A program made the translations under genes and the position numbers. This document shows, piece after piece, positions 12,607 through 54,142 of a DNA stretch of 64,000 nt; position 1 is the stretch's first letter, and each line of letters starts with the position of its first letter. The notes under the pieces are model-generated. The model was not told where the DNA came from. It did not search any database and was given only the letters and a program-made list of their open reading frames with translations. The stretch is taken from the NCBI RefSeq assembly GCF_003334305.1, contig NZ_QOWS01000005.1; one strand, written 5' to 3'. The stretch is from Escherichia coli. Lineage in GTDB: Bacteria; Pseudomonadota; Gammaproteobacteria; Enterobacterales; Enterobacteriaceae.

Positions 12607-13539
12607 ATGTGGTCAGAATATTCACTCGAAGTTGTTGATGCGGTAGCGCGTAATGGTAGTTTTAGCGCTGCGGCACAGGAGCTGCATCGCGTTCCTTCTG
12701 CGGTCAGCTATACCGTGCGTCAGCTGGAAGAGTGGCTGGCGGTGCCGCTCTTTGAACGACGGCACCGTGATGTGGAGCTGACCGCTGCTGGAGCGTGGTT
12801 TCTCAAAGAAGGGCGCTCTGTTGTCAAAAAAATGCAGATCACCCGCCAGCAATGTCAGCAGATAGCGAACGGCTGGCGCGGTCAGTTAGCTATCGCAGTG
12901 GATAATATTGTCAGGCCAGAACGTACACGGCAGATGATCGTTGATTTTTATCGCCATTTTGATGATGTCGAACTTCTTGTCTTTCAGGAAGTGTTCAACG
13001 GTGTCTGGGATGCGCTTTCCGACGGGCGCGTGGAACTGGCGATTGGCGCAACACGCGCGATTCCGGTAGGCGGTCGTTATGCCTTCCGGGATATGGGGAT
13101 GCTAAGCTGGAGTTGCGTTGTTGCCAGCCACCACCCGCTGGCGTTGATGGATGGCCCATTCAGCGATGATACGTTGCGCAACTGGCCGTCGTTGGTGCGC
13201 GAAGACACCTCGCGAACGCTACCTAAACGTATTACCTGGTTGCTGGATAACCAAAAAAGAGTTGTCGTGCCTGACTGGGAATCATCGGCAACCTGTATCT
13301 CGGCAGGATTATGCATAGGGATGGTGCCAACACATTTCGCCAAACCGTGGCTTAATGAGGGGAAGTGGGTAGCACTTGAATTGGAAAACCCCTTCCCGGA
13401 TTCGGCATGTTGTCTGACATGGCAGCAAAATGATATGTCGCCTGCGTTAACCTGGCTGCTTGAGTATCTCGGCGATAGTGAGACGCTGAATAAGGAGTGG
13501 CTGCGGGAGCCGGAAGAGACTCCCGCAACGGGTGATTAA
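12607..13539 (+). CDS. punR: LysR-family transcriptional regulator (PunR, formerly YdhB)
   Basis: ORF-track 310 aa; N-terminal HTH; divergent from punC. Confidence 0.9.
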
Positions 13540-14561
13540 CGACGATAGTCGCGGAACGGGCCGTCAGCCACGGAGCGGCGTTCAATCAAGCGCGGATGCA
13601 CTTCAATGGACTGCGGTTCTTCACGTTTGTTGACGATACGATCCAACAGCATGTTGAACGCTGTTTCACCCAGCGAATCTTTTGGCTGGTGGATCGTGGT
13701 CAGCGCCGGCGTAAAATAGCGGGCGTTGCGCACGTTATCATAACCGATCAGCGAAACATCCTGCGGGACGCGCAGACCCATTTCATCAGCAGCACAAAGT
13801 GCGCCCATTGCCATGATATCGCCACCACAGAAGACGGCAGTAGGGCGATGCGGCTGCGACAGTATTTGCTGCATGGCGCGATAACCAGATTCGGGTTCAA
13901 AGTCACCCTGAACAATCCAGCTTTCCGGCACCTTGATCATCGCTTCTTCCATCGCCTTCATAAAACCGGCAAGGCGGCCTGCGCCGGTGTTACGTTCCAG
14001 CGGGCCGGGGATGACGCCGATTTCGCGGTGACCGCGTTCAATCAGATAACGCCCGGCCATGTAGCCGCCTTCGAACGCGTTATCAATGACCGCATCGGTG
14101 AAGTCAGCTTTTGCTTCACCCCAGTCCATCACCACCATTGGGATATGGCGATACTCTTCCAGCATCGCCAGCAACGGCTCTGGGTACTCAGAACACATCA
14201 CCAGCAGACCATCGACGCGTTTTTGCGCCATCATCGACAGATAAGCCCGCTGTTTCTCAAGATTGTTCCACGCATTACCCAGAATCAGGGTGTAACCTTT
14301 CTGGAAGCAATTTTTTTCAACCGCTTCAATGATCTCGGCAAAATAGGCCGCTTCGCTGCTGGTCGCCAGCAAACCGATAGACTTGGTGTGGTTAACCTTC
14401 AGGCTACGCGCCACCGCGCTAGGGGAGTAGTGTAATTCTTTAATCGCTGCCCACACGGCGTTGCGCGTTTCTTCAGCGACGAAACGTGTTTTGTTGATTA
14501 CGTGTGACACAGTTGTAGTGGAAACGTTTGCTCGTTTCGCTACATCTTTTATTGTTGCCAT
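13536..14561 (-). CDS. purR: Purine repressor PurR (LacI family)
   Basis: ORF-track 341 aa starting [33 protein letters not shown]; stop overlaps punR stop within palindrome TTAA. Confidence 0.95.
14518..14533 (-). promoter_or_regulatory. Second PUR-box-like operator inside the 5' end of purR coding sequence
   Basis: Minus-strand GAGCAAACGTTTCCAC; spacing (~80 bp from first box) fits the known two-operator autoregulation of purR. Confidence 0.5.
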
Positions 14562-14605
14562 TCCATTTCACTCCAGACCCTAACTTCAGCTCCTGCAAAA
14601 TCGCA

Positions 14606-14621
14606 AGGTAAACGTTTGCCT
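14606..14621 (-). promoter_or_regulatory. PurR operator (PUR box) in purR 5' leader
   Basis: Minus-strand AGGCAAACGTTTACCT, near-palindrome with the AAACGTTT core of the PUR box; about 45 nt upstream of the purR start codon. Confidence 0.6.
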
Positions 14622-14859
14622 TTACACACCTTACGCACAACAAAAGTGTTGCGGTACGCCGGAAAAACGACACGGAGCGTCAGGAAGGGGTCAATGGCCA
14701 GTACGCAAATAGTGTAAGCGTGGAATTTTGGCCGATCTTGACGAAAAGGGGAAGTGGTAAAAACACTTATCATTATAAATGACGGGAGATTTTTTCATCA
14801 CAGTGTGTAAAAATGCGTAATATCACTTTTTGTGTGGTAATAAAAAAGGAGAAAACTTG

Positions 14860-14949
14860 ATGAGCACCGACCTTAAATTTTCACTGGTAACAACGATTAT
14901 CGTCCTCGGTTTGATCGTAGCCGTGGGTTTGACTGCCGCGCTGCACTGA
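14860..14949 (+). CDS. ynhF: Small membrane protein YnhF (29 aa)
   Basis: Not in ORF track (below length cutoff); ATG at 14860 after GGAG, encodes MSTDLKFSLVTTIIVLGLIVAVGLTAALH, single TM helix; matches remembered ynhF. Confidence 0.7.
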   Translation: MSTDLKFSLVTTIIVLGLIVAVGLTAALH

Positions 14950-15114
14950 TTTCCTCTCGAGGGAGCGCGTTCTCCCTCGCATCTCCTTCCTGTTTGTTAG
15001 CAAAATGGCAAAAGTGTTTTCTCTTTTTGTTATTTTCATTTTTTTGTGATTGCTGTCATGCTTTCGCCACTTTAATGAATATCGCGTAATGACGCGAAGA
15101 GGTGGAGATAAGGC

Positions 15115-16284
15115 ATGAAAATTAACTATCCGTTGCTGGCGCTGGCGATTGGCGCGTTTGGTATCGGGACAACGGAGTTCTCGCCAATGGGCTTGTTGCC
15201 CGTCATTGCGCGCGGTGTGGATGTCTCGATTCCCGCTGCCGGAATGTTAATCAGTGCCTATGCAGTTGGCGTAATGGTGGGCGCGCCGCTGATGACGCTT
15301 CTACTTTCTCATCGTGCCCGCCGCAGTGCGTTGATTTTCCTGATGGCAATTTTCACGCTCGGCAACGTACTTTCCGCCATCGCGCCGGATTATATGACCC
15401 TGATGCTTTCACGCATTTTGACCAGCCTGAATCACGGAGCATTTTTTGGTTTGGGTTCAGTCGTGGCCGCAAGCGTGGTGCCAAAACATAAACAGGCCAG
15501 CGCAGTTGCCACTATGTTTATGGGGTTAACCCTGGCAAATATCGGTGGCGTGCCGGCGGCGACCTGGTTGGGTGAAACCATCGGCTGGCGGATGTCATTT
15601 CTGGCAACGGCGGGGCTGGGAGTGATTTCAATGGTAAGTCTGTTCTTCTCATTACCTAAAGGTGGTGCAGGGGCACGACCTGAAGTGAAAAAAGAGCTGG
15701 CGGTATTAATGCGTCCGCAGGTGCTGTCTGCATTGCTGACGACGGTACTGGGAGCTGGTGCAATGTTTACTCTCTACACCTATATCTCTCCGGTACTGCA
15801 AAGTATTACCCACGCAACACCGGTGTTCGTCACGGCAATGCTGGTGCTGATTGGTGTCGGATTCTCTATCGGTAACTATCTCGGCGGCAAACTGGCAGAT
15901 CGTTCAGTTAACGGCACGTTGAAAGGCTTTTTGTTGTTGTTGATGGTGATTATGCTGGCAATCCCGTTCCTGGCCCGCAATGAGTTCGGCGCAGCTATTA
16001 GCATGGTGGTGTGGGGCGCAGCAACCTTTGCGGTCGTACCGCCGTTACAGATGCGCGTGATGCGTGTCGCCAGTGAAGCGCCAGGTCTGTCTTCATCAGT
16101 CAATATTGGTGCCTTTAATCTTGGAAATGCGCTGGGAGCAGCTGCTGGTGGTGCGGTAATTTCCGCTGGGCTGGGATACAGCTTTGTGCCGGTGATGGGA
16201 GCGATTGTCGCGGGACTGGCATTATTGCTGGTGTTTATGTCAGCCAGAAAACAACCTGAAACAGTTTGCGTTGCTAACAGCTAA
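15115..16284 (+). CDS. ydhP: MFS transporter YdhP
   Basis: ORF-track 389 aa, 12-TM MFS-like. Confidence 0.9.
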   Translation: MKINYPLLALAIGAFGIGTTEFSPMGLLPVIARGVDVSIPAAGMLISAYAVGVMVGAPLMTLLLSHRARRSALIFLMAIFTLGNVLSAIAPDYMTLMLSRILTSLNHGAFFGLGSVVAASVVPKHKQASAVATMFMGLTLANIGGVPAATWLGETIGWRMSFLATAGLGVISMVSLFFSLPKGGAGARPEVKKELAVLMRPQVLSALLTTVLGAGAMFTLYTYISPVLQSITHATPVFVTAMLVLIGVGFSIGNYLGGKLADRSVNGTLKGFLLLLMVIMLAIPFLARNEFGAAISMVVWGAATFAVVPPLQMRVMRVASEAPGLSSSVNIGAFNLGNALGAAAGGAVISAGLGYSFVPVMGAIVAGLALLLVFMSARKQPETVCVANS

Positions 16285-16286
16285 TT

Positions 16287-16318
16287 AAACAAAAACGCAG
16301 AAGGATAACCTTCTGCGT
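16287..16318 (-). terminator. Hairpin terminator in the ydhP/sodB convergent intergenic region
   Basis: Stem ACGCAGAAGG / CCTTCTGCGT (16295-16318); on the minus strand it is followed by TTTTTGTTT. Confidence 0.5.
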
Positions 16319-16359
16319 TACAGTTGCTGACAACGTGCGATTTATCTTGCCGAATGCGC

Positions 16360-16410
16360 TGTTAACGCCTCATCCGCGTTGGCATGGTAAGCGAAGCGCA
16401 TCAGGCAATG
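16360..16410. repeat. REP (repetitive extragenic palindrome)-like element downstream of sodB
   Basis: Minus-strand reading GCCTGATGCGCTTCGCTTACCATGCC resembles the REP consensus (GCCTGATGCG...CTTATCAGGCC); imperfect match, assigned by eye. Confidence 0.4.
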
Positions 16411-16429: not shown

Positions 16430-17011
16430 TTATGCAGCGAGATTTTTCGCTACGAATTCCCAGTTCACCAGCGCCCAGAAGTGCTCCAGATAGCCAGGAC
16501 GTGCATTGCGATAGTCGATGTAATAAGCGTGTTCCCAGACATCAACGGTCAGCAGCGGAGTCGCATCGGTGGTCAGCGGAGTACCCGCGTTAGAGGTTGA
16601 AACGATAGCCAGTTTGCCATCGCTGTTTTTCACCAGCCAGGTCCAGCCAGAACCAAAGTTTTTGATCGCTGCATCAGTAAACTGCGCTTTGAAATCGGCA
16701 AAGCTGCCAAAAGATGCGGCGATAGCTTCAGCGACTTTTCCAGTCGGTTCGCCACCGGCGTTCGGTGCCAGGCAGTTCCAGTAGAAAGTATGGTTCCAGA
16801 CCTGAGCTGCGTTGTTGAATACGCCACCTTCAGAGCTGCGAATAATCTCTTCCAGTGATTTACCTTCAAACGCGGTACCTTTAATCAGGTTGTTCAGGTT
16901 AGTGACATAAGTCTGATGATGCTTGCCGTAGTGATACTCGATAGTTTCCGCAGAAATGTGCGGTGCCAGAGCATCTTTAGCATATGGTAGTGCAGGTAAT
17001 TCGAATGACAT
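16430..17011 (-). CDS. sodB: Superoxide dismutase [Fe]
   Basis: ORF-track 193 aa starting [32 protein letters not shown]; recognised. Confidence 0.97.

Positions 17012-51346: not shown

Positions 51347-54142
<2,796 letters not shown>

Follow-up and report, generated by a model that had tools for sequence, protein, structure and literature searches.

The autoregulatory operators of purR and the divergent small-protein gene cydH (ynhF) in Escherichia coli: two characterised elements back to back

The region between the purine repressor gene purR and the small gene cydH (ynhF) was analysed in a stretch of Escherichia coli DNA of 64,000 nucleotides (nt; contig NZ_QOWS01000005.1, assembly GCF_003334305.1), referred to here as the window. 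The locus almost certainly consists of two independent, previously characterised elements placed back to back: the autoregulatory operators of purR, with O1 in the leader and O2 in the first codons, and the divergent gene cydH, which encodes a 29-residue subunit of cytochrome bd-I oxidase. No evidence for a functional link between purR and cydH was found beyond their conserved adjacency. All elements of the locus were already known, and the finding is correct but ordinary; autoregulation of purR through two operators has been described since 1990 and carries little weight as a discovery, and YnhF has been known as the fourth subunit of cytochrome bd-I since 2019.

A preliminary description of this region, made from the sequence, had placed two operators with the core AAACGTTT at purR, one in the leader and one within the first codons, and had read them as autoregulatory. 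Both operators are present (Table 1), with their cores at 14610-14617 (O1) and 14522-14529 (O2); the start coordinate of that description, 14518, coincides with the first base of O2. The bare 8-mer is not rare, as the window holds five copies against 1.9 expected and five were reached in 7 of 100 shuffles; the 12-mer GCAAACGTTTNC is found without mismatch only at O1 and O2. For a quantitative comparison, a PurR matrix was trained on 27 motifs obtained by chromatin immunoprecipitation on microarrays (ChIP-chip; PMC3159470 Table 1), with the motif of purR itself excluded against circularity. The training sites score between 11.85 and 25.38 bits, with a median of 20.34. O1 scores 21.55 bits, which is inside the range of the ChIP-verified sites, and no other site on either strand of the 64 kb scores as high (p 3e-8; 0.004 such sites expected per window). 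O1 is a 16-bp imperfect palindrome with a central CpG that matches ACGNAAACGTTTGCNT, and its + strand is identical over the full 16-mer to the ChIP-chip motif published for purR, AGGTAAACGTTTGCCT (PMC3159470 Table 1). The corresponding ChIP-chip region (1,735,528-1,736,095) has an enrichment of 1.99 with adenine and none listed without it (PMC3159470). The autoregulation proposed in the preliminary description is borne out by this motif identity and by the statement in the same study that PurR autoregulates.

O2 scores 10.34 bits (p 3.3e-5), which makes it about the ninth-best location in the window, and it passes the cut-off of p<1e-4 used in PMC3159470. Sequence by itself identifies O1 without ambiguity but does not allow O2 to be called. 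A scan with a PurR matrix had been suggested as a check in the preliminary description; it returned O1 as the top site and put O2 under the range of verified sites. The left half of O2, G[C/A]GCAAAC, fits the consensus ACGCAAAC, whereas its right half reads GTTTCCAC against a consensus of GTTTGCGT. O2 looks like a compromise between an operator and a coding sequence, the right half being limited by the codons for Ser14 and Thr15.

The operators were compared across species using one genome per species, with loci located by a degenerate pattern for the N-terminal coding sequence of purR in which all synonymous positions were left free. The resulting 113 loci, each with 450 nt or more of sequence upstream, gave 114 sequences together with the window; the organisms among those named are almost all Enterobacteriaceae (Citrobacter, Enterobacter, Klebsiella, Salmonella, Kluyvera, Cedecea, Kosakonia and others). 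O1 reaches at least the weakest training score in 111 of the 114 sequences and is always located 57-60 nt 5' of the purR ATG. The core of O2 is kept in about 110 of the 114 species. The commonest form of O2 is GCGCAAACGTTTCCAC (71 of 114; 12.9 bits), and the E. coli form is found in 37. The third-base entropies of codons 11-14 are 0.25, 0.00, 0.18 and 0.33 bits, with Asn12 encoded by AAC in all 114 sequences, while the flanking four-fold degenerate codons vary (Thr3, 1.34; Val7, 1.30; Val21, 1.65; Val28, 1.74; Ala29, 1.75 bits) and the other four-fold codons among codons 2-30 have a median of 1.04 bits. Codons 11, 13 and 14 rank lowest in entropy among the 16 four-fold codons in codons 2-30 (one-sided rank test, p 0.0018, a value to be read in the light of the phylogenetic relatedness of the species). 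The O2 sequence thus appears to be constrained beyond the needs of the encoded protein. The spacing between the O1 and O2 cores is 88 bp in 71 species, 87 bp in 22, 86 bp in 5 and 85 bp in 8, so that their helical phasing is not conserved.

O2 is accepted as real because of its position, the comparative evidence and the literature, and not because of its matrix score. A matrix threshold used alone would wrongly reject this real but weak intragenic operator, which other evidence supports, so that synonymous-site conservation is the better means of detecting operators embedded in coding sequence.

A second pair of palindromes with the AAACGTTT core, GATAAAACGTTTTATC and GGTAAAACGTTTTATC, is located at 52991-53006 and 53069-53084, 78 bp apart. 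The pair lies just 5' of an open reading frame (ORF) that starts at 53116 and whose first codons, MATAKKITIHDVA, resemble the N-terminus of a LacI-family protein. These GATAAAACGTTTTATC-type palindromes were considered as PUR boxes and rejected, since they are not among the top matches of the PurR matrix and precede another LacI-family gene. Their map position relative to purR would make them the operators of MalI at the divergent malI-malX promoters.

The second element, cydH, is on the opposite strand, with its start codon 298 nt away from that of purR (14561). The preliminary description had reported a 29-codon frame about 300 bp upstream of purR with a GGAG ribosome-binding site, encoding a micro-protein with a single transmembrane segment, and it proved accurate in the position of the frame, in the site (AAGGAG, 8 nt 5' of the ATG) and in the exact peptide. 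The peptide agrees with chain H of PDB entry 6RKO ('Uncharacterized protein YnhF / Cytochrome bd-I ubiquinol oxidase CydH') at all 29 residues, and the identical sequence is present in eight PDB entries. Its match to the NCBIfam equivalog NF033411 (small_mem_YnhF, 'cytochrome bd-I oxidase subunit CydH') scores 50.2 bits, over a cut-off of 30, and aligns residues 1-29 of the protein with profile positions 1-29 of 29. The name ynhF used in the preliminary description identifies the right gene, but the name and the function that went with it are outdated: the protein is now CydH (CydY), the fourth subunit of bd-I.

A divergent cydH, consisting of an ATG, 29 codons and a stop, is located 236-309 nt from the purR ATG in all 114 sequences, which encode 75 distinct peptides. 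GGAG is present in each of the eight commonest upstream 20-mers. The column entropies at the three codon positions are 0.59, 0.35 and 1.39 bits, the mean pairwise ratio of nonsynonymous to synonymous differences (pN/pS) is 0.25, and residues M1, T11, T12, L16, I19 and A26 are invariant. These values carry the clear signature of evolution as a protein-coding gene.

A longer product was weighed against the 29-codon gene, as the mechanical ORF list runs the frame up to a TTG at 14830 and would give a 39-codon ORF, 14830-14949. The TTG extension would cross the AAGGAG site, conservation upstream of AAGGAG is poor, the solved chain has 29 residues and begins MSTDL, and the N-terminal formyl-methionine is retained in the isolated protein (PMC6853902). 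The 39-codon product has next to no probability.

The 29-codon cydH gene is nearly universal in E. coli, with a 121-nt query matched in 5425 of 5426 genomes. A sample of 60 RefSeq E. coli genomes, taken at even intervals along the ranking, carries the annotation 'cydH: cytochrome bd-I accessory subunit CydH' in every one. The expectation in the preliminary description that automated callers would miss it has been overtaken by these annotations and by the NF033411 model. An ab initio caller with a length cut-off would still miss cydH; the NCBI pipeline with its curated model does not. Curated small-protein models thus allow standard pipelines to annotate a gene of 29 codons.

The function of the peptide is described in the literature. 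When bd-I was purified from E. coli, a fourth subunit that had not been expected came to light, a single helix of about 3 kDa, which mass spectrometry identified as YnhF; the protein is produced at low oxygen, retains its formyl-methionine and has its gene between ydhP and purR, away from the cyd operon (PMC6853902). It closes off the site through which oxygen enters the Geobacillus enzyme (PMC6853902). CydH occupies a cleft that separates CydA helices 1 and 9, and bd-II lacks this subunit (PMC8951039; PMC12648545). In the proposed scheme, a promoter of its own would drive the divergent transcription of cydH, and translation from AAGGAG, a strong site, would give a single transmembrane helix. 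This helix docks between CydA helices 1 and 9, blocks oxygen entry of the Geobacillus type and leaves a narrower channel to heme d.

Several points weigh against the account of purR operators and cydH given above. The O2 score is lower than that of the weakest training site (11.85 bits), and 4.3 matches of this quality are expected per window. GalR occupies both O1 and O2 in vivo as well (PMC5110547). The frozen synonymous sites show that something reads the O2 DNA or RNA, but they do not tell PurR from GalR. A simple sigma-70 consensus scan of 14450-15150 returned no promoter for purR or cydH. Finally, the partnership of CydH with CydAB is taken from the literature (PMC6853902), the cydAB genes being outside the window.

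The points about O2 suggest an alternative in which O2 is mainly a GalR operator, or a chance match, rather than a functional PurR site, so that purR would be autoregulated through O1 alone. O2 is also a near-consensus GalR operator, and its + strand reading (the reverse complement), GTGGAAACGTTTGCTC, is very similar to GalR operators given in PMC5110547. That study reports GalR ChIP-chip binding at both sites ('ynhF/purR', GTGGAAACGTTTGCT and AGGCAAACGTTTACC, score 9.5), with binding at purR validated by quantitative PCR of the immunoprecipitated DNA; the site GTGGAAACGTTTGCT corresponds to O2. Its expression arrays revealed little or no GalR-dependent regulation. The low matrix score and the PurR ChIP-chip study, which gives only the O1 motif for purR (PMC3159470), point in the same direction. 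On the other side, the title of the primary paper (Rolfes & Zalkin 1990, cited in PMC5110547) states that two control sites are required, PurR binding inside the purR reading frame is stated in PMC3159470, and the GCGCAAACGTTTCCAC form carried by most of the species is nearer to the PUR consensus. We regard this alternative as improbable.

Other regulators have been placed in the same region. A Salmonella ChIP peak for MarA/RamA is assigned to purR<>ynhF, and the weak marbox reported in Salmonella, GCCCGTTTCGCTACA, has a motif p of 6.9e-4 (PMC10268841). The sequence at 14530-14544, GCTCGTTTCGCTACA (purR codons 6-11, overlapping the edge of O2), resembles this marbox with one difference. A candidate Fur box at 14766-14782 (ATAATGATAA, minus strand) was rejected; no match to the 19-mer Fur consensus was found within three mismatches, and the motif is present in 7 of the 114 species.

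With both O1 and O2 taken as PurR operators, the autoregulation of purR can be outlined as follows; PurR occupancy in vivo and the roadblock mechanism are drawn from the literature. PurR works as a dimer whose corepressors are hypoxanthine and guanine (PMC10912719), and it binds inside the purB and purR reading frames, where it blocks elongation (PMC3159470). It is highly likely that a PurR dimer loaded with either corepressor binds O1 strongly and O2 weakly and that, because O1 and O2 lie downstream (3') of the purR promoter, bound PurR hinders elongation as a roadblock to RNA polymerase, with a mild negative feedback on purR as the outcome. PurR has no tetramerisation domain; for this reason, and because the spacing drifts between 85 and 88 bp, the two operators most likely act additively rather than via a DNA loop.

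The region between the two genes, the whole of cydH included, also matches the Rfam family RF02081 ('STnc550 sRNA'), which would make it a structured non-coding small RNA (sRNA) with the cydH frame and the palindrome as incidental features. The covariance-model match is full length and far over the gathering score (Table 1). However, model positions of about 297-386 coincide with the cydH ORF, with its third-position wobble, its low pN/pS and a product seen by mass spectrometry and cryo-electron microscopy. The O1 palindrome makes up one of the annotated hairpins (model positions 46-61), and its outer pairs change among species without compensation (AGG..CCT to GGT..CCT, TGT..CGT or ACG..CCT), as is expected of a protein-binding site and not of an RNA stem. 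The match begins exactly on the base next to the purR start codon, which resembles an annotation boundary, and ends 3 nt past the cydH stop. The high score reflects sequence conservation among enterobacteria rather than structure. A search of the accessible literature for STnc550 found no paper naming it. A structured sRNA is accordingly given a very slight probability, and RF02081 appears to represent the cydH mRNA plus shared intergenic DNA, including a DNA operator, misclassified as an sRNA. The case is relevant to users who take Rfam matches as evidence of non-coding RNA.

Within the intergenic DNA, the alignment of the 114 sequences contains conserved blocks at O1, at the purR Shine-Dalgarno sequence and at 14717-14735, 14745-14754, 14789-14795 and 14804-14814. 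The blocks within 14717-14754 and at 14789-14795 are at least 95% conserved and presumably hold the purR promoter and regulator sites; the purR promoter itself should be located within the blocks of 14717-14760. Block 14804-14814 reads TGTGTAAAAAT and contains a putative extended -10 element of cydH. The pattern TGn+NANAAT is found in 110 of the 114 sequences and, in 106 of these 110, ends 39-45 nt 5' of the cydH ATG, mostly 44-45 nt. The cydH promoter is thus inferred to be of the extended -10 type, with transcription predicted to begin near 14821, which would give a leader of about 39 nt. The ynhF mRNA is trimmed at its 5' end by RNase G (PMC4191395). Downstream of cydH, the 8-bp GC-rich hairpin that follows the stop codon was not reported by the terminator scan, and the fold as a whole is no better than that of shuffled sequences (z -0.69). 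The hairpin is partly conserved and is at best a weak terminator; read-through from cydH into ydhP is possible.

The pairing of purR and cydH, conserved in 114 of 114 sequences with a spacer of 236-309 nt, might reflect real regulatory coupling, to which we give only a slight chance. If true, PurR or GalR at O1 and O2, or a cydH transcript with a long 5' extension that runs antisense to the purR leader (with the 'STnc550' boundaries), could link purine status to the composition of the high-affinity oxidase. Nothing but the adjacency speaks for coupling, and close relatives are expected to share their gene order in any case.

The layout of the locus (Table 1) is the same in the mechanical ORF listing and in the RefSeq annotation of one identical genome. 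The 3-kb region 13400-16400 was matched in 5426 of 5426 complete E. coli RefSeq genomes, several of them at 100% identity. The purR product is well defined, as its residues 2-341 match the purine repressor chains in the PDB (1bdi and others) with an E-value of 9e-231. Elsewhere in the window, two tandem tRNA-Val(GAC) genes are located on the minus strand at 5813-5889 and 5894-5970. A match to the Rfam entry 'HPnc0260 antisense RNA' (5689-5851, + strand, 112 bits) partly overlaps the first of them on the opposite strand.

Table 1. Features of the purR-cydH locus, with positions in the window
Feature	Position	Strand	Basis
punR (ydhB)	12607-13539	+	ORF list and RefSeq
purR, 341-residue LacI-family purine repressor	13536-14561	-	ORF list and RefSeq
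PUR box O2, weaker operator, purR codons 10-15 (R-A-N-V-S-T); GAGCAAACGTTTCCAC in purR sense	14518-14533	-	matrix, conservation, literature
RF02081 'STnc550 sRNA', full-length match (model positions 1-388)	14562-14952	+	396.5 bits against a gathering score of 48
purR Shine-Dalgarno GGAG, 9 nt 5' of ATG	14571-14574	-	sequence reading; block at least 80-95% conserved in 114 species
PUR box O1, strong operator, purR leader, -60 to -45 from ATG; AGGCAAACGTTTACCT in purR sense	14606-14621	-	matrix and ChIP-chip motif identity
Putative cydH extended -10, TGn+AAAAAT (TGTAAAAAT)	14806-14814	+	block at least 95% conserved
cydH Shine-Dalgarno AAGGAG, 8 nt 5' of ATG	14846-14851	+	sequence reading
cydH (ynhF, cydY), 29 codons, ATG to TGA	14860-14949	+	ORF reading and RefSeq
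8-bp GC-rich hairpin after cydH stop, CGAGGGAG / CTCCCTCG	14958-14979	+	centroid fold; no proper T run
ydhP	15115-16284	+	ORF list and RefSeq
sodB	16430-17011	-	ORF list and RefSeq

Compared with known systems, the purR operators belong to the identical locus described in E. coli by Rolfes & Zalkin (1990) and by Meng, Kilstrup & Nygaard (1990), and no difference was found. The published operators are a leader site and a coding-region site, both downstream of the promoter, and O2 is the sequence GAGCAAACGTTTCCAC listed for purR/b1658 (PMC5110547). The present analysis adds to the published work their conservation over 114 species and the fixation of the O2 core at synonymous positions. The intragenic PUR box of purB is similar to O2 in being an operator within an ORF that acts on elongation and not on initiation (PMC3159470, PMC4052901). 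However, the purB site is single and deep in the gene, whereas purR combines a leader site with a site in codons 10-15. RF02081 (STnc550) resembles the locus over its full length, but it behaves as an mRNA and an intergenic region and not as a non-coding RNA.

The cydH gene of the window does not differ from CydH/CydY/YnhF of E. coli bd-I (6RKO chain H, NF033411), with the same sequence and the same position between ydhP and purR. CydX, AppX and CydS, which were set beside CydH by their descriptions, are likewise single-helix peptides of about 30-40 residues bound to CydA. The gene for CydX belongs to the cydABX operon, and its product attaches to the opposite face of CydA (helices 1, 5 and 6) and is needed for assembly, whereas CydH is the product of an orphan gene, sits between helices 1 and 9 and closes a route for oxygen (PMC6853902, PMC8951039, PMC12648545).

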